A stretch of 64,000 nucleotides of DNA from Nannocystaceae bacterium ST9 (GCA_048320885.1 JBLWFJ010000001.1:5569697-5633696); one strand, 5' to 3'; counted from the stretch's first letter, positions 6,001 through 52,706 are shown. Notes: a model not told the origin generated them from the sequence alone. Numbers and translations: made by a program.

Positions 6001-9000
6001 GCCAGCTCGAGCCCGCGCTCGCTGGCCTTGCCGAGCAACCCGAGCAGCTCCGGCCAGCGCCGACGAGCCTGCAGGCGAGCGATCAGCTCGGCGAGCGCCG
6101 GCGGATCGTCGAGCCGGGCCTCGGCCTGCTCGCGCAGCAACCCGAGCGCGGCGGGCTCGTCGACGACCTCGACGACATGCTGCGCGAGCGCTTCGAAGAG
6201 CGCGCCCGTGCTCGCGGCCGGCAGCGAGCGCTCGCGGATCAGCGCGTTCAGCCAGGCCGCCGCGCGGGCGATCGTCGCCGCGTGCGGCTGAGCGTCGTCG
6301 ACGACCAATTGCTCGGCGGCGCAGCGCAGCCACAGCGCTCGGATCAGGCGCGCGTCGGAGGGGTTGGCGATCAGCCGCTCGCGCAGCAGCGCGTCGGTCC
6401 GCTCGCGCAGCTCGGCGTGCTCGAGCTCGCCGGCCAGCGCGAGCAGGCGCTCGAGCGTGGCGATCTCGCCCTCGGCCGCGATGACCTGCTCGAGCGCCGG
6501 CCAGCGGGCGAGCAGTCGCTCGCGTGCGCCGTGGCGAGCGAGCAGGGTCAGAGCGTCGAGCGCGAGCTCGATCGTCGCGATCCCATGCGGACTCAGCAGC
6601 TCGAGTGCGGCGTCGGCCAAGCTGGCCGCGACCTCGCGCTCGGCCTGCTCGGCGAGCGCCAGCAAGCGGCTCGCGCTGGCTCGCCGATCCTCGTCGTGCA
6701 GCGCGAGCAGGCGCGCGACCAGGCCCTCGCGCCGCGCACTCGCGAGCCCGGGCGCGAGCAGGCGGGCCTCGACGCTGGCCTGCTCCTCCTGGACCCGACC
6801 CAGCCGACGGATCGCCCACTCGCGCAGCTCGGCCAGCTCGCCGCGCTCGACTCGCTCGGGCTCGAGTTGGTCGAGTCCGAACGCGACGGTCGCCGGATCT
6901 TCGAGCGCGCGCCCGAGCTCGATCGTCAGCATCGCCGCCGCGTCGCCCTCGCGGGCGCGCGAGCGATCGCCGAGCGCCACTCGCAAGCTGCGGGCCGCCC
7001 GAGTAGCGAGCTCGGTCCACTCGCCGGTCGCTCGCCGACTGGCCAAGAGCTCGCGCAAGGCCGCGATCGCCCGCGGCTCGATCGTCGGAGCGCCGAGCAG
7101 CGCTTCGAGCCGCTCGATCGCCTGACCTGGACGATCGAGCGCGCGCGCCAGCAGATCGATCTCGGCCAGCCGCTCGTCGAGCTCGAGCTCGACGCCCGGG
7201 GTCTCGCGCAGCACGGCCCGCGCTCGCGCCTGCGCGGCGAGATCGTCGAGCGCCAGGCCGACGCGCAGCCACGCTCGGTTGCCGGCCTCGCGCTCGCGCG
7301 AGCGGACCAAGCCGGGGCTCAGTCGCTCGGCTCGCGCGAACGAGTCGAGCGCGGCCCGACCCTGGTTCGGATCGCCCTCGCGTTCGAAGAGCCGGGTCAG
7401 CGCGCGCGCGCGGGCCAGCTCGAGCGTGGCGCGGTGCTCGTCGGACTCGCCGGCGTCGAGCAGCGCGAGCTGGGCCGCGACGGCCTCGGACGCGAGCGTG
7501 GGATCGTCGATGTCCTGGGCGACCTCGGCGAGCAGCGCGAGCGCGTCGCGATGGCTGGGATCCAGTCGCAGCGCTCGCTCGACCAACCCGTGTGCGAGCT
7601 CGGGCTCGCTGGTGTCGAGCGCGTGGCGAGCCAGCGCCAGCGCCGGTCGCAAGAAGCGAGGATCGTCGGCGTCCAGGCGCTCGCCCGCGACCGTCCACAG
7701 CTGGCGTGCTTGCTCGTGATCACCCTGCTCGTCGCGCAGGTTGCCGAGGATCAGCAGCGCGGTCGTGTGCTCGGGCCGCAAGACCAGCAGATCCTCGAGC
7801 AGCTCGGCCAACTCGTCGCGCCGGCGATCGAGGGCCTCGTCCTGCTCGACCACGCCGATCAGTCGCTCGAGCAGCTCGGCGCGCAGGGCCGGATCGGCGC
7901 GTCGCTCGATCTGCCCGCGCAGGTGCAGCTCGAGTCGCTCGATCTCGCCGCGCTCGCGCAGCGCCTGCTCGAGCTCGTCGGCCAGCGCGAGGTCCTCGGG
8001 GCGCAGCTCGACCGCGCGCTCGAGCAGCTCGATCCGCGTGCTCGGCAGCCCGTCGACCGGCTGGTCGAGCTGATCGAGGCGCTCGACCCCGGCCTCGTCG
8101 AGCACCCGAGCCGCGCGCGCGAGCCAGGCCCCGAGCCGCTCGTCGGCGTCGTCGCGACCGAGCAGCCCGCTCGCGTGCTCGAGCGCGATCGCCAGCGCGC
8201 GCGCGTCTTCGGCCAGCTCGCGCAGGGCCACGAAGGTCTGCTCGGCGATCGCCTCGCGCAGCGCCGGATCGACCAGCTCGGGATCGGCCTGGGCCAGCTC
8301 GCGCTCGCAGGTCGCGAGCAAGTCGGCGGCCTGCTCGAGCTCGCCGACCTCGCGCAAGAGTCGAGCGAGGCGCAGGCTCAGCTGGCCGCGCTCGCTCGGC
8401 GTGGCCCGGGCGTCGTCGTCGAGCAGCGCCTGCAGCTGCGGGATCGCGTGCTCGGGCCGAGCGAGTCGCTCGTAGCAGTCGGCCAGGGCCGCGCGCAGCT
8501 CGAGGCGATCGGGGGCGAGCAGCAGCGCGCGCTCGAGCTGCTCGCTGGCCTCGGCCAGCTCGCCGCGGGCCAGCAGCGTCCGACCCAGGCGGGCGCGGGC
8601 GTGCAGCTCGGTCGCTCGCTCGCGCAGCCGGACCGCGGCCTTGGCCAGCCGCGCCAGACCTTCGCGATCCTCGTCGTCGAGCAGCTGCTCGATCTGCGCG
8701 AGGATCTTCTCGGGCCGATCGAGCTCGTCGACCGCCGCCCACAGGTCGGCGAGTCGCTCGTGGATCCGCAGGGCCTGGGCCGCGCGTTCGACCAGCGCCT
8801 CGCCGCGTCGCTGCCCGCGAGCGTGGACGATCAACAAGTCGAGGATCCGCGCGCGGTCGGTCGGCGGAGCCAGCTCGAGCGCGGCCTCGAGCACGTCGAG
8901 CACCCAGGCTCGCTTGCTGGCCCGCTCGCCGAGCGTGCCGCGATCGAGCGACTCGCCCGACGTCGGGATCGCGCCGGCGACCGAGCGCAGGCTCTCCCAG

Positions 9001-11174
9001 GCCTCGTCGATCCGACCGGCGCGCTTGAGCAGGCGGGCGCGCTCGAGCAGCAGCGCGTCGCGATCGTCGAGCTCGGCCTCGCCGAACGCGTCGATCTCGA
9101 GCAGTCGGCCGAGGTAGTCGGCGGCCGCCATCGCGTCGCCGAGCTTGCGCTCGAGCGCGGCGCCTCGGCGAAGCAGATCGACGTCGCCGGGATCCTGATC
9201 GATCGCGATCGCCAGCTCGCGGCGGGCGAGCTCGTGGTGCTCGCGATCGTCGAGCTCGCTGGCCAGCGCGATCAGCCGCTTGCGCAGACCCTGGCGCTCG
9301 CCGGGCGCGGCCTGCTCGAGCCGCATGCGCAGCAGCGTGGTCGCGGTCGCCCGCTCGTCGATCCGCAAGGCCAGATCGATCGCCCGATCGAGCAAAGCGA
9401 GGTCGTCGGGGTCGTCGGCGATCGCCGCGGTCAGCAGCGCGAGCGCGTGGTTGAGGCCGCCGAGCTCGGAGCTCCCGTGCTCGATGAAGCCGCGCGCGAC
9501 CTGGGCGCGAAGATCGGCGCGGCGCCGCGGGTTGCGGGTGTGCTCGAGCGCCTCTTCGAGCGCCTCGAGCACGTGCGGCACGGTGGTCAACGATCGTCGC
9601 TCGCGGGCCAGCTCGGCCACGCGCGCGCGGGCCAGCACGACCAAGGCCTCGGGCAGCAGCGCCGACAGCATGCCATGCAGCGCCCGCGCGGCCGCTTCGT
9701 CGGGATCGCTGCGCTCGGACACGCGGGCGATCGCTCGGCGATCGCGACTGCTGGCCAGCTGCTCGCGCAGGCGCTGCGTCAGCGGACCGATGATCGCCAG
9801 CGCGCTGCGAGCATCGTCGAGTCGATCGATCAGCAAGCTCGCGACCGCGAGCTCGAGTCGGGCCTGCACGCCGGGCGGATGCGGCTGGCGGCAGTCGGCC
9901 GCGAGCAGGCGCGCGAGGTCTTGCGCGCGACCCTCGGCGGCCAGCAAGATCGCCAGCAGCCGTCGCGGCTCGCGGGCGCTCGGCTGGAGATCCAGCCACT
10001 CGCGGACCGCCTGCAGGGCCTCGCCGCGATCGAGGAAGCGAGCCAGGTCGACGCGCCAGCGGACCAGCGCCAGGTGGGCGGCGGGGAACGACTCGAGCGT
10101 GTGCGAGAGCCCAGCCAGCTCGCGCAGCGCGGGCCCCAGCGCCTCGCTCGGGCTCGGCGTCGAGTTCATCAGCCGCAGCAGCTCGCGGGCGCGGTCGAGT
10201 CCGCGGGCGATCGGTTCGTCGAGCAGCCCGGGCTCGCCCGGCAACGAAGCGACGGCAGCGAGCGCGTCCTCGCTGGGCTGTGCCGGCCATGCCGGGTCGG
10301 CGACTTCGTGTTCGCCAGGCTCGAACTCGGTCAGCGGCCCGCGCAGTTCGAAGGTCGCGCCACGCCGACTCAGGGCCAGCTCGGTGACCACGCAACCCTC
10401 GAGGTTCGGCGCCTTCCAGCCGACCGACGCGAACGCGCGGGTCATCGCCAGCCGAGCCGGGTCGATCGTCAGCGTGCCTTCGTCGCCGGCGACCACGGCC
10501 TCGCGCAGCCCGGCGATTCGACCGGCGGCCAGCCGCTTGGCGATCGCTCGCCAGAGTCGGCGGGCCGAGGTGTCGCGACCTTCGCGATCGATCGACGCCG
10601 TGCGAGCGCGGCCCTCGTCGTGCTCGTCGGCGTGCACGAGCGCGGCCGGCAGATCGCCGATCAACCACAGTCGACAAGGGCGCAGCGCGAGCCGGCGCTG
10701 CTCCGGCAGCAGATCGAACGCGACCAGCAGCCAGACCTGCTTGCCGGTCGTGGTCTCGCCGCCGATCATCAAGCATGGCCGCGGCCGCTCGGCCTCGGGC
10801 AGCTCGCGGCGCAGATCGATCTCGACCTCGCGGATCCGCAGGCCGAGCAGCGACTGATCGATCAGCCGTTCGCTCAGCCAGGGCAGCAGCGCGCGGTCTT
10901 CGATCACCAGCGTCGCGCGAACCACTCGGCAGCGACGCTTGCGAAACTTGGTCGCCGTCAGCGGCCCACGCAGCGGCATGCGGACGCCGGGGATCAGCGC
11001 CTCGTACTCGCGCAGCCGCACGCCCGGCGCGAGCGTGCGACGGACCAGGGCCAGCAGCGCTCGCCGCTCGCGAAACAGCAACGAAAACCCGAGCACGTTG
11101 CCGACACCGGGACCTTGTCCCGGAGCGTCGGCCGTGGGCTGCTCATCGTCGTGGTTCGGAGGCTCGACGCTCAC
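1..11174 (-). CDS. Giant (>=3,700 aa) alpha-helical/TPR-like repeat protein, 3' end beyond window start; N-terminal ~270 aa non-repeat domain then thousands of residues of A/L/R/E/D-rich helical repeats
   Basis: The + frame 0 ORFs (69..5789, 6177..11282) use rare codons (CAA, CGA, GTA, GAT, GAA, CAT, CTT, GTT) whose complements are the preferred codons of this genome (TTG, TCG, TAC, ATC, TTC, ATG, AAG, AAC). The in-register minus frame is therefore the real one. That frame has no reported ORF because it never hits a stop before position 1 (edge-truncated ORFs are absent from the track; compare the unlisted HlyD gene at 62995..64000). Hand translation of the minus frame from 11174 downward gives a plausible protein with ideal GC3. 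Start uncertain: GTG at 11172-11174, alternatively GTG near 11292-11294. Confidence 0.6.
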   Translation of the reverse strand, partial: MSVEPPNHDDEQPTADAPGQGPGVGNVLGFSLLFRERRALLALVRRTLAPGVRLREYEALIPGVRMPLRGPLTATKFRKRRCRVVRATLVIEDRALLPWLSERLIDQSLLGLRIREVEIDLRRELPEAERPRPCLMIGGETTTGKQVWLLVAFDLLPEQRRLALRPCRLWLIGDLPAALVHADEHDEGRARTASIDREGRDTSARRLWRAIAKRLAAGRIAGLREAVVAGDEGTLTIDPARLAMTRAFASVGWKAPNLEGCVVTELALSRRGATFELRGPLTEFEPGEHEVADPAWPAQPSEDALAAVASLPGEPGLLDEPIARGLDRARELLRLMNSTPSPSEALGPALRELAGLSHTLESFPAAHLALVRWRVDLARFLDRGEALQAVREWLDLQPSAREPRRLLAILLAAEGRAQDLARLLAADCRQPHPPGVQARLELAVASLLIDRLDDARSALAIIGPLTQRLREQLASSRDRRAIARVSERSDPDEAAARALHGMLSALLPEALVVLARARVAELARERRSLTTVPHVLEALEEALEHTRNPRRRADLRAQVARGFIEHGSSELGGLNHALALLTAAIADDPDDLALLDRAIDLALRIDERATATTLLRMRLEQAAPGERQGLRKRLIALASELDDREHHELARRELAIAIDQDPGDVDLLRRGAALERKLGDAMAAADYLGRLLEIDAFGEAELDDRDALLLERARLLKRAGRIDEAWESLRSVAGAIPTSGESLDRGTLGERASKRAWVLDVLEAALELAPPTDRARILDLLIVHARGQRRGEALVERAAQALRIHERLADLWAAVDELDRPEKILAQIEQLLDDEDREGLARLAKAAVRLRERATELHARARLGRTLLARGELAEASEQLERALLLAPDRLELRAALADCYERLARPEHAIPQLQALLDDDARATPSERGQLSLRLARLLREVGELEQAADLLATCERELAQADPELVDPALREAIAEQTFVALRELAEDARALAIALEHASGLLGRDDADERLGAWLARAARVLDEAGVERLDQLDQPVDGLPSTRIELLERAVELRPEDLALADELEQALRERGEIERLELHLRGQIERRADPALRAELLERLIGVVEQDEALDRRRDELAELLEDLLVLRPEHTTALLILGNLRDEQGDHEQARQLWTVAGERLDADDPRFLRPALALARHALDTSEPELAHGLVERALRLDPSHRDALALLAEVAQDIDDPTLASEAVAAQLALLDAGESDEHRATLELARARALTRLFEREGDPNQGRAALDSFARAERLSPGLVRSREREAGNRAWLRVGLALDDLAAQARARAVLRETPGVELELDERLAEIDLLARALDRPGQAIERLEALLGAPTIEPRAIAALRELLASRRATGEWTELATRAARSLRVALGDRSRAREGDAAAMLTIELGRALEDPATVAFGLDQLEPERVERGELAELREWAIRRLGRVQEEQASVEARLLAPGLASARREGLVARLLALHDEDRRASASRLLALAEQAEREVAASLADAALELLSPHGIATIELALDALTLLARHGARERLLARWPALEQVIAAEGEIATLERLLALAGELEHAELRERTDALLRERLIANPSDARLIRALWLRCAAEQLVVDDAQPHAATIARAAAWLNALIRERSLPAASTGALFEALAQHVVEVVDEPAALGLLREQAEARLDDPPALAELIARLQARRRWPELLGLLGKASERGLELAAGVEPWLRIAGSAADDRDVESEVRARARAGSLLLRDAGLGDDPQSVDAELAKRAIAELRRAIELAPRRADLRWRLGRAQAVLHAFVPDPSLARDALACLLPLWDEQRWSEAGVEAAELALRCGELASELGDHLRARELLSAAHARVPVELRERTSALLFASLVALERDDEAVQLASARAAELEDVEAQVMWLRAAAERASGPREVELLGRAHELAPEDESLLVELELRLRELDDRPALEQLGQERLDRFRGRARAQTGLDLDELDPSTLDEPLRSGWIAALRARIALLHDRAPTPARDGEDESELDDRLDALIPLHEELLRLDPSDVDALMTLAGQRLRHAELHEALRLWALAEPGLRDDDPRLFEVAKRLAEQRLQPAPGRHEAAELLDAHRLLERALLLRPDDPEALARRHALACMLDDPSKVLIAARALLDHPTGLDHHQLAELEGDVARAQALLGQPLEAIAAFERAVASTEPGSERHRELAQRWLDLLAHPQLADADPSLRARRELAARTELRLALGTELSGEQTLREAELSIELGELDPALGLLEGLLIQSSGEALGASELRGRVRARLERLAGDDQGRHRDRVLRSQRRVVDALPPGRERDELARELALSARAAEAARTTLDALDRLSGQAAAEPELLDLRVWAVRKLDRVEDELADLERMLGEASDAAGDPVLLDRLLRLLEHDIEACAARLIDLAGSAGLHVHGRRRVWLLDSALELLHSHAPDRLALGVRALAGLLELVGDPALAIELDPDERSARERVATLRRQWQQFAASALEQASRDRRALERVGELVAAADRAAIAELPGFSELGEMLLDRASVDFPDHPGLHALARRRLPGGELRLALERLDRLAANHRIDARNQARLLLGLVGTLELADQPAFLRELAARHVGEPAIFAALREALRKLGAFSELVELIELGGGEVEPERWLELADDAAAAERSDIEAEARGRAGTSLLARVLADERDTGALTDTSLRRAVEQLARARALRPDDRTIQLSYGRALERAGRAAAALEQLAPLLEVLQAELAQIEATEPEPELEGSLHAQLGSLARRCGLLALEIGERERAVEFLDLARHRLRQLKSRLTVAERLHKLLIELGRASQDPRWSQRAAGLAREIAETLAGSEDSLPWLERAARLAGDERERAELYARAHALRPDDDRLADAYEASLRALDDRPRLQQVLRARIHAGLHAGDRARTVAQLERLLALLGKPTAETDDRVAAIRERAALLEQLLRLAPERLEARLELAELRLAEGDREAALGHWRQLAERLPADDPRFLIPARELARFALEADELDQARRWLERALAIDPNDAGALTGLVDLGRRTNDAPLLLRASETLLAHPSAGAAIERAELLRQRASAFERLERPEEALVAIRQAAREAEPMSRLHVEVAEQWLRLVTREGKRVLLRENEDAAQAQGEAEAREQLRLALDERLPARAYVAEAELLATRLDRRADGFELLRAGLRRHPNELDLLAALEDLCASAGEQGRFVALLASLLTEQSANPPAEPPLRMIEKLARAARAIDDPHTCLRALEALPAELAERSELLELRDWAVRGLGRVDEELAEIDRRILALDQQAAADRLQALVGRMLRLLGEAGEPCAERLLGLIDRIDEPREPELARALARSALRVAREYAPERLPVAIAALRATLTHDSVKAVAAWWSGVESLALDAGALAPIVELLGLAYVAEREGGLAYRSRADRLALAAARIDPGDPSLHATLIERLAHEHAELGALIDRLCERLDELARELDLHESALARLWSAGLAALERRIGDATRQAPASSRIAAILRERTERALADREAFSGLLGLLRERGRWAEVLDLALQAGARIGGLSSTVLDEIAEQAGLAHDDATRLRARVELGLRLRADREPGLAADAFADARSLAPDRIDLQYRLGDALAEAGRSEPALEQLLPLLDPLLDPLLDPLLDHPRLDELPGLVGAPAHEADRVALTRRCAELLHASGQRERATSLLDRALAACPIGDARR
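177..224 (-). repeat. Perfect 4x tandem 12-bp repeat (atcgagcagcgg)4 inside the giant gene; encodes (LLDP)4 in the minus coding frame
   Basis: Read directly in sequence at 177-224; in-frame with the giant minus-strand CDS. Confidence 0.8.
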
Positions 11175-11407
11175 CGGAAATTCGCTGCCCGAGGGTCGCG
11201 CGGGCCGCTGAGTATAGCGACAAAACCGAGCGCCGGGTCGATCCGGGCGGTCGGTCTGGAAGCCCGATCGGGAGCCCCGTGAGACGAGCGGCACGGCGCA
11301 CGTGTACAGGTCGGTTCGCCCCGCCCCGCGCTCTGCGGGATCGAGCGCGATCCGGACGACGCGCGAAACACCGGATCGCCGCCCCGCGTATGCTCGTCGG
11401 GCCACCC

Positions 11408-12523
11408 ATGAGGACACTCGGAAGCCACGCGAAGGGTCTGCGCCTCGAACGGATGAAGGCCTCGCCCTCGTGGGTCGAGGGCAGCTTTCGCAACATCCAC
11501 CCGATGCTGCCCAACCTGCGCAGCGGTGTGATGCCCAGCGTCGGCGAGTTCTTCCGCGGCGGCGGCCGGCGAGTCCCCGACGCGCCGCTGCCCTCGCTCG
11601 ATCCCCGCGAGGCCTGGGCGCGGCCGATCGACACCGGCCTGCGCGCGACTTGGCTGGGCCACTCGACCGTGCTGATCGAGATCGACGGCGCGCGGGTGCT
11701 GACCGATCCGGTCTGGGGCGAGCGCGTCTCACCGCTCGGCTTCGTCGGACCCAAGCGCTTCCAGCCGGTGCCGATCGCGATCTCGGCCCTGCCCGAGCTC
11801 GACGCCGTGATCGTCTCGCACGATCACTACGACCACCTCGACTACCCGACCATCCGCCAACTCGCCGACGCCGAGGTCCCCTTCGTGACCTCGCTGGGCG
11901 TCGGCGCCCACCTCGAGGCTTGGGGCGTCGCCAGCGAGCGAATCTTCGAGCTCGACTGGTGGGAGACCTGGCAGCACCCGCGCAAGGACCTGACCATCAC
12001 CGCCGCGCCCTCGCAGCACTTCTCGGGCCGCACGCCGGGCAAGCGCAACAGCACGCTGTGGTCCTCGTTCGTCACTCGCGGCTCTCGCCACGCCGCGTTC
12101 TTCAGCGGCGACACCGGCCTGACCACGCAGTACGCCGAGATCCGGGCCAAGCTCGGTCCCTTCGACCTGATCATGCTCGAGGTCGGCGCCCACCACCCCG
12201 CCTGGGGCGACATCCACCTCGGCCCCGACAACGCGCTCGCGGCCCTCGATCTGCTCGGCGGCGGCGCGTTCTTGCCGGTCCACTGGGGGACCTTCAGCCT
12301 GGCGATCCACGAGTGGGACCAACCGGTCGAGCGCCTGCTCGAGCTGAGCCCACGGGCGGGCGTGCAGTTGGTGTTGCCGCGGATCGGCGAGGTCGTCGAG
12401 CCGGCGCGGGTCGAGTCGGTCGACATCTGGTGGCGGGCGGGGGGGATCCGCGAGCCTTCGGTTCGGGAGGTCGAGACGCCGAGCGACGCCGACGCGCAGA
12501 CGGTCGAGTGGCCGATCGATTGA
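11408..12523 (+). CDS. MBL-fold metallo-hydrolase (HxHxDH motif 'HDHYDH'; NAPE-PLD/Zn-dependent hydrolase-like)
   Basis: Real portion of ORF 10775..12523; ATG at 11408 (alt ATG 11390); strong GC3 codon bias; metallo-beta-lactamase motifs. Divergent from the giant gene. Confidence 0.85.
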   Translation: MRTLGSHAKGLRLERMKASPSWVEGSFRNIHPMLPNLRSGVMPSVGEFFRGGGRRVPDAPLPSLDPREAWARPIDTGLRATWLGHSTVLIEIDGARVLTDPVWGERVSPLGFVGPKRFQPVPIAISALPELDAVIVSHDHYDHLDYPTIRQLADAEVPFVTSLGVGAHLEAWGVASERIFELDWWETWQHPRKDLTITAAPSQHFSGRTPGKRNSTLWSSFVTRGSRHAAFFSGDTGLTTQYAEIRAKLGPFDLIMLEVGAHHPAWGDIHLGPDNALAALDLLGGGAFLPVHWGTFSLAIHEWDQPVERLLELSPRAGVQLVLPRIGEVVEPARVESVDIWWRAGGIREPSVREVETPSDADAQTVEWPID

Positions 12524-45926: not shown

Positions 45927-47825
45927 ATGCCTCGCTCGCCCGCGCTGCTCGGCGCCTCGCTGCTCGCCTCGCTCGCCTGCTCGGCCGAGCCGACCAGCAA
46001 GACCTTCACCGACGAGCGCGAGCCCTGCAGCGACCACAACCCGCAGCGCAACCTCTACTTCGGCGACCTGCACGTCCACACCGCGTACTCGTTCGACGCC
46101 TACATCAACGAGGTCCGCGTCGATCCGGCCGAGGCCTACGAGTTCGCGCGCGGTCGAGCGGTCGAGCTGCCGGACGGCGCGGGCGGGCTGCAGACCCGCA
46201 CGATCGATCGCCCGCTCGACTTCGCCGCGGTCACCGATCACGGCGAGTACCTCGGCGAGGTCGCGGCCTGCGTCGATCCGGACTCGCCGGCCTGGTCGAG
46301 CGATCTGTGCGTCGGGCTGCGCGAGGGCGACCAGGCCGTGCTCGTGCAGTGGGGCCTGGGCTTGGGCTCGAGCAGCCCGATCCGCCCGGCCGGCGTGTGT
46401 GATTCGGCGGATTGCCCGAATTACCTCGACGGCGCGTGGACGCGGGTCCAGCAGGCGGCCGAGGCCGCCTACGATCGCTCGGCCGCCTGCGAGTTCACCA
46501 GCTTCGTGGCCTACGAGTGGTCGGGCGCGACCATGCTCTCGAACCTCCACCGCAACGTGATTTTTCGAACCGCCGCGGTGCCCGATCTGCCGATCACGCA
46601 TTTCGAAGAGCCCAGCTTCTGGAACCTCTGGGACGCGCTGGATCGCGAGTGCATCGCCGGCCTGGCCAATTGCGACGTGCTGGCGATCCCGCACAATACC
46701 AATTGGTCGAACGGCAACATGTTCGTCGCCGAGTACCCCGAGGGCCGCAGCGAGGCCGAGTGGGCCACCTTGCGGGCCGAGCTCGAGCCGCTGATCGAGC
46801 TCTACCAGCACAAGGGCGACAGCGAGTGCATGAACGGGCTCTCGGGGGTGATCGGCGAACCCGACGAGGCCTGCGAGTTCGAGAAGCTGCGGACCGGTGA
46901 ATTCGACGATTGTGGCGAGGGCACCGGCATGCAGGGCATGGTCAACGGCGGCTGCGTCTCGCGGCTCGACTTCTATCGCGGGATCCTCGGCGAGGGTCTG
47001 CGCGAGGCCGAGCGGCTCGGGATCAACCCCTACAAGCTCGGCGCGATGGCCAGCACCGACACCCACAATGGCACGCCCGGCGCGGTCGAAGAATTCGCGT
47101 TCGTCGGCCACTTCGGCAACACCGAGGGCGGCCCGCGCGAGCGATTGACCGGCGAAGTCCCGGGCGGGCCGAACAATTCCCCGGGCGGCTTGATCGCGGT
47201 GTGGGCCGAGGAGAACAGCCGCAATTCGATATTCGAAGCGATGAAGCGGCGCGAGACCTACGGGACCTCGGGCCCGCGCATGGCCCTGCGCCTGTTCGCG
47301 GGCTGGGACTTTCCCGGCGACCTGTGCTCGGACGCCGCGTTGGTCGAGCAGGGCTACGCGCGGGGCGTGCCGATGGGCGGCGACCTTCCGGCCCGACCGA
47401 GCGACGCCGGTGCCCCGCGCTTCGTGGTCTCGGCATTCAAGGATCCCGGCACGGCCGAGCATCCGGGCCGCGGACTCGAGCGGGCGCAGATCATCAAGGG
47501 CTGGCTCGACGCCGAGGGCGAGCTGCACGTCGAGGTCTACGACGTCGCGGGCGAGCCGGGCATGGGCGGGGTCGATCCGGCGACCTGTGAAGAGACGGGG
47601 AGCGGGGCGGCGTCGCTGTGCAGCGTGTGGGAGGATCCGGGGTTCGATCCGGGCGTGCGGGCTTGGTATTATCTGCGGGTCTTGGAGCTGCCGACGTGTC
47701 GGTGGAGCGCGCGGGATTGCAATTCGTTGGCGGCGGCGGGGGAGGAGTTGCCGGAGTCTTGTGGGGAGAAGCCGGGGGCGATTCAGGAGCGCGGGTGGAG
47801 TTCGCCGATTTGGTATAGCCCGTAG
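45927..47825 (+). CDS. DUF3604 family lipoprotein (PHP-like metal-dependent phosphoesterase motif YFGDLHVHT)
   Basis: ORF 45927..47825; signal/lipobox MPRSPALLGASLLASLAC. Confidence 0.75.
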   Translation: MPRSPALLGASLLASLACSAEPTSKTFTDEREPCSDHNPQRNLYFGDLHVHTAYSFDAYINEVRVDPAEAYEFARGRAVELPDGAGGLQTRTIDRPLDFAAVTDHGEYLGEVAACVDPDSPAWSSDLCVGLREGDQAVLVQWGLGLGSSSPIRPAGVCDSADCPNYLDGAWTRVQQAAEAAYDRSAACEFTSFVAYEWSGATMLSNLHRNVIFRTAAVPDLPITHFEEPSFWNLWDALDRECIAGLANCDVLAIPHNTNWSNGNMFVAEYPEGRSEAEWATLRAELEPLIELYQHKGDSECMNGLSGVIGEPDEACEFEKLRTGEFDDCGEGTGMQGMVNGGCVSRLDFYRGILGEGLREAERLGINPYKLGAMASTDTHNGTPGAVEEFAFVGHFGNTEGGPRERLTGEVPGGPNNSPGGLIAVWAEENSRNSIFEAMKRRETYGTSGPRMALRLFAGWDFPGDLCSDAALVEQGYARGVPMGGDLPARPSDAGAPRFVVSAFKDPGTAEHPGRGLERAQIIKGWLDAEGELHVEVYDVAGEPGMGGVDPATCEETGSGAASLCSVWEDPGFDPGVRAWYYLRVLELPTCRWSARDCNSLAAAGEELPESCGEKPGAIQERGWSSPIWYSP

Positions 47826-47891
47826 CGCGGACGAGACCGGCCGCGAAGCCGCGTACCCGAAGCGCGAACGCCCTCGCACACCACATCTGGG

Positions 47892-47920
47892 TTGACAGCC
47901 CGGCCCCTCCACAATATGTT
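47892..47920 (+). promoter_or_regulatory. Sigma70-like promoter TTGACA-N17-TATGTT for the nrd operon
   Basis: Exact -35 hexamer TTGACA (47892-47897), 17-bp spacer, -10 TATGTT (47915-47920); predicted TSS coincides with the riboswitch 5' end. Confidence 0.5.
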
Positions 47921-47923
47921 GTG
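47910..47923 (+). promoter_or_regulatory. NrdR-box-like palindrome CACAATATGTTGTG overlapping the -10 element
   Basis: Matches the NrdR box consensus (acaCwAtATaTwGtgt) with 2 mismatches to a perfect palindrome; single copy found. Confidence 0.45.
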
Positions 47924-47924
47924 C

Positions 47925-48112
47925 CTGCGCTGGTGCACGGCCCGAGTGTCGTGTCCAAGAGGGAATCCGGTGAGAGTCCGGAGCTGCCCCGCAGCGGTGA
48001 GCGAGAACGAAATCCACGCGACGCACTGGCTTTGGCTGGGAAGCGGTGGAGATTAGGTTCGAATCACGCGAGAGCGTGGTTCGGGGGCTCGTGAGTCCGA
48101 AGACCTGCCAGC
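47925..48112 (+). ncRNA. Cobalamin (AdoCbl) riboswitch in the 5' leader of nrdA
   Basis: Strong match to RF00174 core: ctGGTGC…AGAGGGAAtCCGGTGaGAgTCCGGaGCTGCCCCcGCAgCgGTgAGCG … GCACTGG (B12-box-like) … GGGAAGcGG … GAGTCCGAAGACCTGCC (3' pseudoknot/closing region). Lies between the promoter and the nrdA start (48340). Confidence 0.65.
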
Positions 48113-48339
48113 GCCCGATCACGAGAGACAGCAGTGATCGGTCGACCTCGAGCCTCGCGGGAGGCGGTGGGGGAGCCGAGCGAGGTCGACGTGAAGGTCG
48201 GTCTCGTGGTCGTGGTCGCGTTGGCCCGATTCGGCGTCTCGCCCGTCTCGCATGTGGCCGAGGTCTCGCGCGCACCGGAGACCGAATGCAGACACACGCA
48301 CGCCCTCATTCCACGTCCCTCGAATCGCCCGCGTCCCGC

Positions 48340-50670
48340 ATGCGTGTGGTCAAGCGCGACGGCAGCAGCGAATTCGTCGATCTCGACAAGATCGTTCGCG
48401 CGGTCGACCGCTGCTGCGTCGGATTGCCCGAGGTCGATCCGCTGCGGATTGCGACCAAGACCATCAGCGGGCTCTACGATGGCGCGAGCACCCGCGAGCT
48501 CGACGAATTGTCGATCCAGACGGCGGCGGCGCTGATCGTCGAGCAGCCGGCGCATTCGCGGCTGGCGGCCCGGCTGTTGGCGGCGTACATCGACGACGAG
48601 GTCCGTGCGCAGGGGATCTCTTGCTTCTCGGCAGCGGTCTCGAATCTGCGCGAATTGGGGCTGGCCAACCAGCGGCTGGCGGAGTTCGTCGAGGCGCACG
48701 CCGAGTCGCTCGACGCGGCGATCGATCCCGGGCGCGACGGTGAGTTCGAGTATTTCGGGGTTCGCACGCTCTACGATCGCTACCTGCTGCGCCACCCGAC
48801 CCGCCGCGAGGTGGTCGAGACGCCACAATACTTCTTCTTGCGGATCGCCTGCGCGCTGGCCGGGGACTTGCCCGAGGCGCTCGCGCTGCATCGATCGTTC
48901 AGCTCGCTCGAGTATCTGCCGAGCTCGCCGACGCTGTTCAACGCGGGCACCCGCCACGAGCAATTGTCGAGCTGCTTCTTGCTCGATTCTCCCGACGACC
49001 ACCTCGAGACCATCTACCAGCGCTACACCGACGTCGCATTGCTCTCGAAATTCGCCGGCGGGATCGGACTGGCCTATCATCGGGTGCGCTCGCGCGGATC
49101 GCTGATCGAGAGCACCAATGGAGTGTCGAGCGGGATCGTGCCTTGGCTCAAGACGCTCGACGCCTCGGTCGCGGCGGTCAACCAGGGTGGCAAGCGCAAG
49201 GGGGCCTGCTGCGTGTACCTCGAGCCCTGGCACGCGGACATCGAGGCGTTCCTCGAATTGCGCGACAACACCGGCGACGAGGCGTCGCGGACCCACAACC
49301 TCAACATCGCCAATTGGATCCCCGATCTCTTCATGCGCCGGGTCGAGGCCGGCGAGGCGTGGAGCCTCTTCGATCCCAAGCGGGTGCCGGAGCTCCCCGA
49401 TCTGTGGGGCGAGGCGTTCGATGCGGCCTATGTCGCGGCCGAGCAGGCCGGCTTGGCCAGCAAGTCGCTGCCCGCCCGCGAGCTCTACGCCCGAATGATG
49501 CGGACGCTCGCGCAGACCGGCAACGGCTGGATGACCTTCAAGGACAAGTCGAATCGGGCCTGCAACCAGACCGCGTTGCCGGGCCGCACGGTCCACCTCT
49601 CGAACCTCTGCACCGAGATCCTCGAGGTCACCTCGGCCGACGAGACCGCGGTCTGCAACCTCGGGTCGATCAACCTGGCCCGCCACGTCGGCGTCGACGA
49701 GCAGGGCCGGCCCGCGTTCGACTTCGCCAAGCTGGCCGACACGGTCGCGATGGCGGTCGTGCAGCTCGATCGGGTGATCGATCGCAACTACTACCCGATC
49801 GCGAGCGCGGCGGCTTCGAACCAGCGCTGGCGGCCGATCGGGCTGGGCGTGATGGGGCTGCAAGACGTGTTCTTCCAGCTCCGGCTGGCCTTCGATTCGC
49901 CTGCGGCCCGCGTGCTCTCGCGGCGGATCGCGGCGGCGGTCTACTTCCACGCGCTGGCGAGCTCGGCGAGCCTGGCCGAGCGGCATGGCGCCCACCCGAG
50001 CTTCGCGGACACCCGCGCGGCGCGAGGCGAGCTGCAATTCGACGCGTGGGGTGTGACGCCCGATGACCAGCATGATCAGCATGACTGGGCGGCGCTGCGC
50101 CGGCGGATCCGCGCGACCGGGCTGCGCAACTCCTTGTTGGTGGCGATCGCCCCGACCGCGACGATCGCCGCGATCGCGGGCTGCTACGAGTGCATCGAGC
50201 CCCAGCTGTCCAACCTGTTTCGCCGCGAGACGCTCTCGGGCGACTTCATGCAGATCAACCGCTACCTGGTCGAGGATCTCGCGCGGCTCGGGCTGTGGTC
50301 GGAGCCGACTCGCTCGCGGCTGAAGCTGGCCGAGGGCTCGATCCAGGGCTTCGCCGAGCTGCCGGCCGAGCTGCGCGAGCTCTATCGCACGGCCTGGGAG
50401 GTGCCGATGCGCTCGCTGATCGACATGGCGGCCGAGCGCGGGGCCTACGTCGATCAGAGCCAGTCGCTCAACCTCTTCGTCGCCGATCCCAACATCGGGC
50501 AGCTCTCGAGCATGTACCTGCACGCGTGGAAGCGCGGGCTCAAGACCACCTACTACCTGCGCTCGCGGCCGGCCACGCGGATCGCCAAGGCGACGGTCGT
50601 GAGCACGCGGCCGGCCAGCGCGGTCACGTGCTCGCTCGAGAACCCCGAGACCTGCGAGGCCTGCCAATGA
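48340..50670 (+). CDS. nrdA: Ribonucleoside-diphosphate reductase class I alpha subunit (ATP-cone + catalytic domain; C-terminal CxxC…C tail)
   Basis: ORF 48046..50670; start ATG 48340 (MRVVKRDGSSEFVDLDKI = ATP-cone start, alt ATG 48286); NrdA-like catalytic sequence. Confidence 0.9.
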   Translation: MRVVKRDGSSEFVDLDKIVRAVDRCCVGLPEVDPLRIATKTISGLYDGASTRELDELSIQTAAALIVEQPAHSRLAARLLAAYIDDEVRAQGISCFSAAVSNLRELGLANQRLAEFVEAHAESLDAAIDPGRDGEFEYFGVRTLYDRYLLRHPTRREVVETPQYFFLRIACALAGDLPEALALHRSFSSLEYLPSSPTLFNAGTRHEQLSSCFLLDSPDDHLETIYQRYTDVALLSKFAGGIGLAYHRVRSRGSLIESTNGVSSGIVPWLKTLDASVAAVNQGGKRKGACCVYLEPWHADIEAFLELRDNTGDEASRTHNLNIANWIPDLFMRRVEAGEAWSLFDPKRVPELPDLWGEAFDAAYVAAEQAGLASKSLPARELYARMMRTLAQTGNGWMTFKDKSNRACNQTALPGRTVHLSNLCTEILEVTSADETAVCNLGSINLARHVGVDEQGRPAFDFAKLADTVAMAVVQLDRVIDRNYYPIASAAASNQRWRPIGLGVMGLQDVFFQLRLAFDSPAARVLSRRIAAAVYFHALASSASLAERHGAHPSFADTRAARGELQFDAWGVTPDDQHDQHDWAALRRRIRATGLRNSLLVAIAPTATIAAIAGCYECIEPQLSNLFRRETLSGDFMQINRYLVEDLARLGLWSEPTRSRLKLAEGSIQGFAELPAELRELYRTAWEVPMRSLIDMAAERGAYVDQSQSLNLFVADPNIGQLSSMYLHAWKRGLKTTYYLRSRPATRIAKATVVSTRPASAVTCSLENPETCEACQ

Positions 50671-51689
50671 GCGCCGTCGTTCGGCCCGCCCGCCTGCTCG
50701 ACCCGGGGCTCTGCCTGACCCTGCGGCCGATGGCCTACCCGCGCTTCTTCGAGATGTATCGCGCGGCGATCAAGAACACCTGGACGGTCGAGGAGGTCGA
50801 CTTCTCCAGCGACCTCGGCGATCTGCACGGCAAGCTCGGCGCGGCCGAGCGGCACATGATCCAGCGGCTGGTCGCGTTCTTCGCGACCGGCGACTCGATC
50901 GTCGCCAACAACCTGGTCCTCAACCTCTATCGCCACCTCAACGCGCCCGAGGCTCGCATGTACCTCTCGCGCCAGCTCTACGAGGAGGCGCTGCACGTGC
51001 AGTTCTATCTGACGCTGCTCGACACCTACGTGGCCGACCCCCGCGAGCGTCACCAGGCGTTCGCGGCGATCGAGCACATCCCCTCGATCCGTCGCAAGGC
51101 CGGGTTCTGCATGCGCTGGCTCGACTCGATCCACGGGCTCGATCGGCTCGACACTCGCGCGCAGCGGCGTCGCTTTCTGCTCAACCTGATCGGGTTCGCG
51201 GCCTGCGTCGAGGGGCTCTTCTTCTTCGGCGCGTTCGCCTACGTGTACTTCCTGCGCTCGCGCAACCTGCTGCATGGCTTGGCGGCCGGGACCAACTGGG
51301 TGTTTCGCGACGAGAGCGCTCACATGGCGTTCGCGTTCGCGGTGATCGAGACGATCCGGGCCGAGGAGCCCGAGCTCTTCGACGCCGAGCTCGAGCGCGA
51401 GGTGGTCGCGATGATCGACGACGCGATCGCCTGCGAGACCCAGTTCGCCGAGGACCTGCTCGCGGGCGGGGTGCTCGGCCTGAGCGTCCGCGACCTGCGG
51501 GGCTACCTCGAGTTCTGCGCCGATCAGCGGCTGGCCACGCTCGCGATGCGGCCGCGCTATCGGACCCGCAACCCGCTGGCGTTCATGGACTTGCAGGACG
51601 TCCAGGAGGTCACCAACTTCTTCGAGCGGCGGGTGTCGGCCTACCAGGTCGGGATCGGCGGCGAGGTGGTGTTCGATGCCGCGTTCTGA
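50667..51689 (+). CDS. nrdB: Ribonucleoside-diphosphate reductase class I beta subunit (diiron/tyrosyl radical)
   Basis: Real part of ORF 50190..51689 from ATG 50667 overlapping nrdA stop (ATGA). Confidence 0.9.
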   Translation: MSAVVRPARLLDPGLCLTLRPMAYPRFFEMYRAAIKNTWTVEEVDFSSDLGDLHGKLGAAERHMIQRLVAFFATGDSIVANNLVLNLYRHLNAPEARMYLSRQLYEEALHVQFYLTLLDTYVADPRERHQAFAAIEHIPSIRRKAGFCMRWLDSIHGLDRLDTRAQRRRFLLNLIGFAACVEGLFFFGAFAYVYFLRSRNLLHGLAAGTNWVFRDESAHMAFAFAVIETIRAEEPELFDAELEREVVAMIDDAIACETQFAEDLLAGGVLGLSVRDLRGYLEFCADQRLATLAMRPRYRTRNPLAFMDLQDVQEVTNFFERRVSAYQVGIGGEVVFDAAF

Positions 51690-52116
51690 GGCCCCGCGCT
51701 CGGAGGCCGAGCGGTCCGAAGCCGAGCGGATCGCCGCGGGCGAGATCGTCGAGCTGCGCCTGCTCGACATGGTGTTCCCCGAGCAGACCAACCACTACGG
51801 CACGCTCTTCGGCGGGCAGGCGTTGGCGTTGATGGACAAGGCCGCGTTCATGCTCGCGTCTCGCTACGCCCGCGCGACCGTGGTCACGGCCAGCAGCGAG
51901 AAGGTCGACTTCCACGTGCCGGTCCGCCAGGGCCAGCTCGTCGAGCTGGTCGCACGGATCGTGGCGACTGGGCGGACGTCGATCACGATCGAGGTCGATC
52001 TCCACGCCGAGGATCTGCTCACCGGCGATCGCATGCTCGGCACGCGCGGTCGCTTCGTGTTGGTCGCCCTCGACGCGCACGGGCGCCCGCGCGAGGTGCC
52101 TGCGCTGCCGAGCTGA
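51676..52116 (+). CDS. Acyl-CoA thioesterase (hotdog fold, YciA-like)
   Basis: ORF 51676..52116; hotdog thioesterase sequence (…TNHYGTLFGGQALALMDKAAF…); overlaps nrdB 3' end by 14 bp. Confidence 0.75.
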   Translation: MPRSEAPRSEAERSEAERIAAGEIVELRLLDMVFPEQTNHYGTLFGGQALALMDKAAFMLASRYARATVVTASSEKVDFHVPVRQGQLVELVARIVATGRTSITIEVDLHAEDLLTGDRMLGTRGRFVLVALDAHGRPREVPALPS

Positions 52117-52126
52117 CGACCAAGCC

Positions 52127-52166
52127 AACAAAAAAACCGAGAGCCCGCGCGGGGCGGGCTCTCGGT
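52127..52166. terminator. Rho-independent terminator hairpin (ccgagagcccgc-gcgg-ggcgggctctcgg) flanked by A7 on the + strand (= U7 tract for a minus-strand transcript); probably bidirectional
   Basis: Perfect 12-bp GC-rich stem with tetraloop at 52137-52165, A-tract 52130-52136; sits between nrd operon end (52116) and a small minus-strand ORF end (52196). Confidence 0.6.
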
Positions 52167-52195: not shown

Positions 52196-52354
52196 TCACG
52201 CGGCGAAGCGGCGAACTCGACGAGTCGGGACGTTCAACAGCTTCTCGGGGCGCTCGCGGTCTTCGAGGATCCGGCGCGTCTCCGCGAGGGCGGGGACGAG
52301 GGCGACGGACACGAGAGCGAGGGTGGCAGCGATCGTGATGAGCATGACGTGCAT
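52196..52354 (-). CDS. Possible small (52 aa) membrane protein MHVMLITIAATLALVSVALVPALAETRRILEDRERPEKLLNVPTRRVRRFAA
   Basis: 3' part of ORF 52196..52567; good GC3 codon usage, one TM helix, followed by the canonical terminator on its strand; short, so tentative. Confidence 0.3.
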   Translation of the reverse strand: MHVMLITIAATLALVSVALVPALAETRRILEDRERPEKLLNVPTRRVRRFAA

Positions 52355-52460
52355 GGCTACCGGCGCGGACGCTCGGGCATTTCCGGGATTGCAGTCGACG
52401 AAGCGTGAGTTTGACCCGATCGCTGGCGAGCGGCGGAATGCCGCGCTATCGATCGCCGCG

Positions 52461-52706
52461 ATGCCGGACTTGCCGATGGCCCTCACGGGCGTGCCCACCG
52501 AAGAACTGAAACAGCTCCTGCGTCGCGTGCATCGCAACGAGATCGCGATTCCGATCACGCCCGCCAACCTCGCGTTCGTCGGGCTTCAGCATCGCGCAGG
52601 CGAGATCATGCAGTCGCTGCGCGGGCTCGACGAGCCGGGCGCGCGCGCGGTGTTGGTCGCCGTGCTCGCCGAGCGCAGGCAGGCCGAGGCCGACGCCCGC
52701 GGGTGA
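52461..52706 (+). CDS. Hypothetical small protein (81 aa)
   Basis: 3' part of ORF 52188..52706 from ATG 52461 (MPDLPMALTGVPTEELKQLLRR…); good codon usage; 8 bp upstream of the Smr gene. Confidence 0.45.
   Translation: MPDLPMALTGVPTEELKQLLRRVHRNEIAIPITPANLAFVGLQHRAGEIMQSLRGLDEPGARAVLVAVLAERRQAEADARG

Follow-up and report, generated by a model that had tools for sequence, protein, structure and literature searches.

Adenosylcobalamin (AdoCbl) is the cofactor of class II ribonucleotide reductase (RNR), and the NrdR boxes of Streptomyces coelicolor were reportedly described by Grinberg et al. 2006. At the nrdAB operon of this organism, NrdR binding to a pair of boxes has been measured (PMC13584703), and a coenzyme-B12 riboswitch has been ascribed to the same operon (Borovok 2006, as cited in PMC12528414 and PMC13584703). 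In Propionibacterium (Cutibacterium) acnes, the nrdAB promoter is overlapped by an nrd-box and the 5' untranslated region (UTR) holds a cobalamin riboswitch; nrdJ and nrdR share a transcript at another place in that genome (PMC3848588). More generally, nrdAB is a known target class of cobalamin riboswitches (PMC3848588, PMC12528414). Here we analyzed a 64,000-nucleotide stretch of Nannocystaceae bacterium ST9 (GCA_048320885.1 JBLWFJ010000001.1:5569697-5633696; referred to as the window), which contains a class I nrdAB operon behind a long leader (Table 1). We estimate a probability of about 0.85 that this region controls nrdAB, together with a downstream thioesterase gene, through two stacked and independent inputs, NrdR and a cobalamin riboswitch.

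In the window as in S. coelicolor nrdAB(S), the promoter is overlaid by two NrdR boxes and the long 5' leader holds a cobalamin riboswitch. As far as the cited accounts of the Streptomyces work go, the logic is also alike, a B12-independent RNR being repressed when coenzyme B12 is available. The two loci differ in that S. coelicolor has an nrdS-type regulator after nrdB, whereas the window has a thioesterase of the 4HBT family. In addition, box 2 of S. coelicolor has T13/G14 (PMC13584703) whereas the window boxes are nearer the consensus, the platform sequences are unrelated, and S. coelicolor is a different organism, the NrdA of the window being nearest to that of Myxococcota. At P. acnes nrdAB a single nrd-box is reported, in contrast to the two boxes in the window, and premature termination was observed there by RNA sequencing, whereas the read-out in the window is predicted by sequence modelling. 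These precedents agree with an earlier note on this DNA, which had pointed to actinomycete examples of B12 riboswitches on class I RNR genes, with the S. coelicolor riboswitch taken as it is cited (PMC13584703, PMC12528414, PMC3848588). Because S. coelicolor and P. acnes show both layers, the stacked NrdR/B12 logic is already described, and with dual control documented in Streptomyces and P. acnes the locus carries small weight as a discovery. New here are a well-parsed example from a myxobacterial-type genome, outside the actinomycetes, evidence for the operator-plus-aptamer geometry in at least four phyla, and a corrected nrdA start for the clade, which affects annotation.

To compare the leader with its relatives, we used an NrdA protein search that returned 80 genome loci and 80 metagenome loci (160 in total, given below as L numbers). 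A promoter scan of the window detected a near-consensus sigma70-type promoter with a 17-nt spacer and 10/12 matches (one site versus 0.0 expected in shuffles), the sole promoter-like site upstream of nrdA and the same TTGACA-N17-TATGTT element that the earlier note had pointed out. The NrdR palindrome which that note had seen on the -10 hexamer is real but is one of two boxes, the distal one having been missed. A functional NrdR site consists of two 16-bp partially palindromic boxes, 15-16 bp apart, over the polymerase site, and a mutational study defined six highly conserved positions per box, C4, A6, A8, T9, T11 and G13 (PMC13584703). When the 12 key positions were scored at 15-16-bp spacing on both strands of the whole window, box 1 and box 2 together carried 12/12 key bases with a linker of 15 bp (47894-47908). 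This was the only 12/12 pair on either strand of the 64 kb, the runner-up reaching 10/12. Thus, by sequence, a predicted two-box NrdR operator covers the promoter, the -35 hexamer being overlapped by box 1 and the -10 hexamer lying within box 2.

A single NrdR box would be weak evidence, since 22/100 shuffled windows yielded at least one 16-bp match at ≤3 mismatches. Measured against the full 16-bp consensus ACACWANATNTWGTGT, box 2 has 2 mismatches and is the sole match in the window at ≤3 mismatches, while box 1 has 4. These figures, together with the failure to find nrdR within the window (see below), would fit the view that the palindromes are simply promoter-associated AT-rich sequence in a genome of 70% GC and not a working operator. 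What makes this view very unlikely is that both boxes have all six binding-relevant positions at the required 15-bp spacing (PMC13584703), and that a pair scoring ≥11/12 occurs at the same offset from the aptamer in 51/83 riboswitch-bearing relatives from several phyla, compared to 12/1720 background positions (0.7%). Moreover, the boxes are kept across relatives while the linker is not, the pattern expected of NrdR sites. The sequence GTTGACA over the 3' end of box 1 recurs at the same position in three relatives (L003, L019 and L018).

The aptamer was identified by covariance model. RF00174 matched over its full length with 109.5 bits (E = 1.6e-26), far above the gathering score of 31.5, so that the riboswitch passes the score check by which the earlier note would have refuted it. 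No other Rfam family exceeded its threshold anywhere in the 64 kb, and a permissive Rfam rescan of 47700-48500 revealed no other RNA family in the leader. The conserved core of the family, made up of the B12 box and the junction sequences GGGAA...GGUG...CCGG, is present (Table 1). By this model the element is a cobalamin riboswitch, located on the sense strand of the 5' leader between the promoter and nrdA, as the earlier note had proposed. The L5 segment is near-invariant among relatives and close to the reported L5 consensus, UCCCG (PMC10327014). The aptamer has the large peripheral extension, and we infer that its ligand is of the AdoCbl type. Note that the outer model pairs of P1 are non-canonical in the Rfam alignment and that well-paired bases begin at 47927. 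Good pairing in P1 thus sets in ~3 nt after box 2 ends, and transcription most likely starts at ~47927, at the foot of P1. The spacing from box 2 to the aptamer is kept in relatives.

A full-length match is of particular relevance in view of Pseudomonas aeruginosa, which like the window has a long leader with NrdR control on its nrdAB (class Ia in P. aeruginosa). There, the 5' UTR element gave no B12 response and was taken to be non-regulating (PMC12528414), and the aptamer in the window might similarly be a decayed relic. However, the P. aeruginosa element, predicted with Riboswitch-Scanner, is weak, whereas the window aptamer is canonical and scores 78 bits over the gathering score. Its L5, B12 box and L13 partner are all intact, and the arrangement is conserved across phyla. 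We therefore give hardly any credence to a relic.

The closest NrdA proteins (72-76% identity) are from Myxococcota, namely Kofleriaceae, Haliangiales, Polyangiaceae and Archangium. An Rfam cobalamin aptamer was present upstream of nrdA in 10/17 loci scanned, including Myxococcota, a Bryobacteraceae metagenome-assembled genome (MAG), a Dokdonella MAG, Actinophytocola and Micromonospora. An nhmmer profile built from the Rfam-found aptamers detected an aptamer ahead of nrdA in about half of the 160 loci, from Myxococcota, Lysobacterales, Acidobacteriota and Actinomycetota, and most of these leaders also have the box pair. In the actinomycete loci L032 and L033, box pair and aptamer are arranged as in the window. 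Since the same geometry is found in four groups, the circuit is broadly distributed, being common in many bacteria of soil, and not a peculiarity of actinomycetes.

Two further features of the related loci were observed. Lysobacterales (Gammaproteobacteria) have high-scoring aptamers and NrdR box pairs upstream of nrdAB, in Arenimonas, Pseudoxanthomonas and Dyella (L008, L010, L015, L020, L024 and L025) and in Dokdonella (L006 and L027), in contrast to P. aeruginosa, whose predicted nrdAB element proved non-functional (PMC12528414). In four loci, metE with its own aptamer adjoins nrdAB (L018, 937-3564; L061, 7436-8922; L067, 7507-10080; L157, 5906-7326). This metE encodes the cobalamin-independent methionine synthase (PF08267/PF01717), so that these loci bring two classic B12-independent isozymes together in one cluster, with a separate riboswitch for each.

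Table 1. Features of the nrdAB control region and adjoining genes. Positions are counted from the first letter of the window; SD, Shine-Dalgarno sequence; RNR, ribonucleotide reductase.
Feature	Position	Strand	Remarks
DUF3604 gene	45927-47825		Upstream flank of the nrdA leader
NrdR box 1 (distal), ACACCACATCTGGGTT	47878-47893	.	6/6 key positions; 3' end overlaps -35
-35 hexamer, TTGACA	47892-47897	+	Promoter scan
NrdR box 2 (proximal), CCACAATATGTTGTGC	47909-47924	.	6/6 key positions; contains -10
Cobalamin riboswitch aptamer	47914-48126	+	RF00174 (clan CL00101), model positions 1-189 of 189
-10 hexamer, TATGTT	47915-47920	+	Promoter scan
Predicted transcription start	47927	+	Inferred; 7 nt after -10, first base of P1
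P1	47927-47933 paired with 48108-48114	+	
Core element, AGAGGGAAUCCGGUG	47959-47973	+	Aligns to RF00174 consensus with high posterior probability
P5/L5, GCUGCCCCGCAGC	47983-47995	+	Loop CCCCG(C), kissing-loop donor
B12 box, GAGUCCGAAGACCUGCC (3' element quoted in the earlier note: GAGTCCGAAGACCTGCC)	48093-48109	+	Conserved 3' RF00174 core, high posterior probability
Hairpin A, CCGAUCAC / GUGAUCGG	48115-48141	+	First platform element; same place in relatives
Stem B	48142-48150 / 48181-48189 (element 48142-48189)	+	Encloses P13
P13 hairpin, GCCUC-GCGG-GAGGC	48152-48165	+	Loop L13 GCGGG at 48157-48161
Candidate anti-SD/switching segment, AGGUCGGUCUC	48195-48205	+	Could pair with stem B 5' strand or SD region
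Second copy of candidate anti-SD segment, CGAGGUCUC	48259-48267	+	
SD of nrdA, GGAGA	48277-48281	+	4-5 nt before ATG 48286
nrdA, class I RNR alpha subunit	48286-50670	+	794 aa from ATG 48286; PF03477, PF00317, PF02867, TIGR02506
nrdB, class I RNR beta subunit (ferritin-like)	50667-51689	+	PF00268, 255.9 bits
4HBT-family thioesterase gene	51676-52116	+	PF03061, 72.3 bits; 14-nt overlap with 3' end of nrdB

The extent of the leader depends on the start codon of nrdA. ATG 48340 opens the conserved ATP-cone sequence MRVVKRDG but is not preceded by a Shine-Dalgarno sequence (SD). The same holds for the corresponding Met of all 28 relatives examined, each of which has an in-frame ATG or GTG with GGAG, AGGAG or AAGGAG 7-50 codons farther upstream (28/28). 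We are thus fairly confident that nrdA of the window starts at ATG 48286, 54 nt upstream of 48340. From this start, the DUF3604-nrdA intergenic distance is 460 bp and the untranslated platform after the aptamer measures ~160-170 nt. The 514-bp leader given in the earlier note holds when counted to the conserved Met, not to the likely start, and its estimate of a ~230-nt platform is too long. DUF3604 as the upstream neighbour is correct.

In NrdA proteins of the clade, the ATP-cone is thus preceded by an N-terminal extension that is short and variable, with a median of 30 codons and 18 codons in the window. A ...PQTTM motif shared by Myxococcota is absent in the window. The first 54 nt of the revised gene (48286-48339) are 48% C and 19% G, a C-skew of +0.44. 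Over 113 loci, the C-skew of the extension was +0.17 versus +0.02 in the conserved gene (p = 3e-11), and it was +0.21 in riboswitch-bearing loci versus +0.10 in loci without riboswitch. The C-rich stretch may act as a rut-like site or keep the initiation region unstructured, or it may do no more than encode a Pro/Thr/Ser-rich tail.

The platform is shorter than the earlier note had it and contains a recognizable P13/kissing-loop hairpin. Just a ~30-nt patch around P13 can be aligned with relatives, the remaining platform being lineage-specific. L13 is complementary to L5 (CCCGC, 47988-47992) over 5 Watson-Crick pairs, and an L5-L13 kissing loop is known in the btuB, env8 and metE riboswitches (PMC10327014). 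Across an alignment of 15 sequences, 84% of cells are paired in P13, its loop does not vary and its closing pair covaries; the overall covariation score of the alignment was 0.259 versus 0.188 in shuffles and was matched by 4/500 shuffles. In an alignment-free search, a hairpin with ≥4 Watson-Crick pairs to L5 followed 72/86 aptamer instances. Covariation between L5 and L13 is impossible because L5 is invariant, and the support for the kissing loop is conservation and complementarity. Stem B likewise shows covariation, and the complementarity of its flanks was higher within than between loci (0/1000 permutations), a modest effect. At hairpin A, both sides vary at all 8 pairs, and 58% of cells pair in a MAFFT alignment. 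No intrinsic (U-tract) terminator was found in the leader, the sole terminator-like site being inside the 3' end of DUF3604.

Two relatives with short leaders, L002 and L004, follow the textbook arrangement, in which the 3' arm of P13 doubles as the SD. We considered that the SD-like 3' arm of P13 in the window (GGGAGG) might serve an upstream open reading frame and rejected the idea, as the nearest start is a GUG only 2 nt away; in L081 and L003 no start codon lies at usable spacing either. The sequence GUCUCG occurs 4 times in the platform (at ~48201, 48236, 48245 and 48263; window 48201-48268). All four would be able to pair with CGGAGAC of the SD region and may be redundant anti-SD elements.

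The best mechanistic analogue of this platform appears to be Escherichia coli btuB, which shares with the window a full-size aptamer, an L5-L13 kissing loop of ~5 bp and a P13 that is separate from a downstream SD-sequestering hairpin (PMC10327014). The two differ in that btuB regulates a B12 importer and not an RNR, has no NrdR operator, and has a shorter platform than the window, where ~110 nt separate P13 from the SD. The corrinoid riboswitch of Priestia megaterium metE also represses a B12-independent isozyme, with a kissing-loop-stabilized P13 selecting the downstream helices (PMC10327014). In contrast to the window leader, it uses an intrinsic terminator.

Taken together, the parts suggest a circuit with two layers. 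NrdR loaded with deoxyadenosine triphosphate and adenosine triphosphate (dATP/ATP) would act when deoxynucleoside triphosphates are plentiful and, as its boxes lie over the -35 and -10 hexamers, should block RNA polymerase. Transcription would begin at the first base of P1 of the full-length aptamer. Upon cobalamin binding, L5 would kiss L13, ~40 nt after P1, and lock the P13/stem B domain. Sequence containing GGUCUC, at 48195-48205 and/or at 48259-48267, would thereby become available for pairing with the SD region (GGAGACC, 48277-48283), blocking translation from ATG 48286 in a btuB-like manner. The untranslated nrdAB mRNA may also be terminated or degraded. The net logic would be that an O2-dependent, B12-independent RNR is turned off when AdoCbl is available. 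The sequence shows the identity of the aptamer, the operator, the promoter, the genes and the conservation of P13, whereas the OFF direction of the riboswitch is a prediction, as is the presence in the genome of nrdR and of nrdJ, the latter predicted also by the earlier note. Under this circuit the organism should possess NrdR and a class II RNR and be able to obtain AdoCbl, a prediction of use for metabolic reconstruction of an uncultured or poorly represented myxobacterial lineage.

Structure modelling of the window supports the final step. In the unconstrained fold of 48094-48310, an extended hairpin formed, P13 was dissolved and the SD had a probability of being unpaired of 0.39. With P13 enforced and the 3' strand of the aptamer blocked, this probability dropped to 0.05, while hairpin A and stem B/P13 formed; this 'bound' fold also held a helix of GGUCGGUCUC with the SD region. 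We then looked for a single intermediate segment able to pair with the SD region as well as with the 5' strand of stem B/P13. The window contains such a three-way arrangement, with GGUCGACCU pairing with AGGUCGGUC at 48195-203 and UCGGUCUC at 48198-205 pairing with GAGACCGA. The complementarity of 8 bp compares to a mean of 4.1 bp in shuffles (P about 0.01), and was significant also in L081 (7 bp, P about 0.01) and L006 (P about 0.03). This picture fits the btuB model, in which a kissing-loop-stabilized P13 promotes a separate hairpin at the ribosome-binding site (PMC10327014). SD occlusion is thus, on modelling grounds, the most likely read-out in this lineage, at roughly even odds.

Several results weigh against the circuit as drawn. 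Within the 64-kb window, no nrdR was detected by tblastn (with an approximate E. coli NrdR query) or by Pfam survey, tblastn with the window NrdA revealed no paralogue and hence no second RNR or nrdJ, and a Pfam survey of ~30 window open reading frames (ORFs) contained no B12 transport or synthesis genes. The three-way complementarity was absent in 6/13 curated relatives. The SD-occlusion step does not appear to be general either. When P13 was enforced and the 3' strand of the aptamer blocked in 40 relatives, SD accessibility went down in 8, up in 4 and was unchanged in 28 (p = 0.086), with no consistent direction, a comparison in which the automated start picker mis-assigned some starts, that of the window included. 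Furthermore, the leader folds were no more stable than shuffles (z = -1.3 and -0.9). Finally, most transcription of P. acnes nrdAB stops short of the first gene (PMC3848588), and B12 is described as controlling nrdABS of Streptomyces at the level of the transcript (Borovok 2006, as cited in PMC12528414). The data from these two organisms argue for transcriptional attenuation instead of, or besides, translational control.

In the main rival reading, the same parts would act chiefly on transcription, with cobalamin causing premature termination in the leader or early nrdA via the kissing loop and P13. As there is no intrinsic terminator, termination would be Rho-dependent, and the C-rich, G-poor tract at 48286-48339 would be a putative rut-like site, exposed once translation or an antiterminating fold is lost. 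The inconsistent outcome of SD-occlusion modelling among relatives and the C-skew of the extension, stronger where a riboswitch is present, are in line with this. On the other hand, the leader has no U-tract terminator, the C-rich tract is coding and could reflect a disordered N-terminus rich in Pro, Thr, Ser and Ala or selection for an unstructured initiation region, and an SD-specific alternative pairing is seen in the window. Termination as the read-out is possible, but we would put it at clearly less than an even chance. Note that SD occlusion and Rho-dependent attenuation are mutually compatible. A scheme that goes beyond simple SD occlusion, in which the long-platform variants (window included) are translation-coupled Rho-dependent attenuators and the nrdB-linked thioesterase is an unrecognized member of the B12 regulon, is speculative and on balance unlikely. 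In such a scheme, the 3' arm of P13 would be SD-like but no longer the real SD, the real SD/ATG lying 110-200 nt downstream; cobalamin would block initiation, and the naked, C-rich early coding RNA would then recruit Rho.

That the operon behind this leader encodes a class I enzyme, as the earlier note had stated, is clear from the protein models. NrdA has the ATP-cone, all-alpha (lgN) and barrel (lgC) domains and scored 698 bits against TIGR02506 (NrdE_NrdA; cutoff 341), compared to 336 bits against the class II model TIGR02504 (NrdJ_Z), which is under its cutoff of 400. The RNR of the window was far under the cutoffs of the class Ib exception models TIGR04170 and TIGR04171. The adjacent nrdB matches PF00268, and its ATG shares bases with the nrdA stop codon (ATGA).

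The 4HBT-family thioesterase gene is probably the third gene of the operon, co-transcribed with nrdAB, and as such it would share the B12/NrdR control of nrdAB. The window has no nrdS as a third gene (nrdABS type), the thioesterase gene being the one that sits after nrdB. The nrdS gene is a Streptomyces peculiarity and dispensable for the regulatory logic. A 4HBT homologue (53-81% identity) lies 3' of nrdB in 11/129 loci from Myxococcota, Lysobacterales and Acidobacteriota (L003, 7774-8148; L019, 7331-7690; L006, L009, L010, L013, L092, L097, L110, L114 and L125). In L114, the 4HBT gene is behind its own cobalamin aptamer (5972-6130).

Right after the 4HBT gene, a GC-rich palindrome at 52136-52166 makes a perfect hairpin of 13 bp that has a run of T on the minus strand. 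It resembles the terminator of a convergent minus-strand ORF (52196-52585) and may also end the nrdAB-4HBT transcript. At the other end of the window, a giant ORF of at least 3998 codons (3-11996, minus strand) continues past the left window end. A Pfam search with four pieces of ~1000 aa returned sub-threshold, weak TPR-type matches alone and no enzymatic domain. The giant ORF is probably real, because the GC content at its third codon positions is 0.87.

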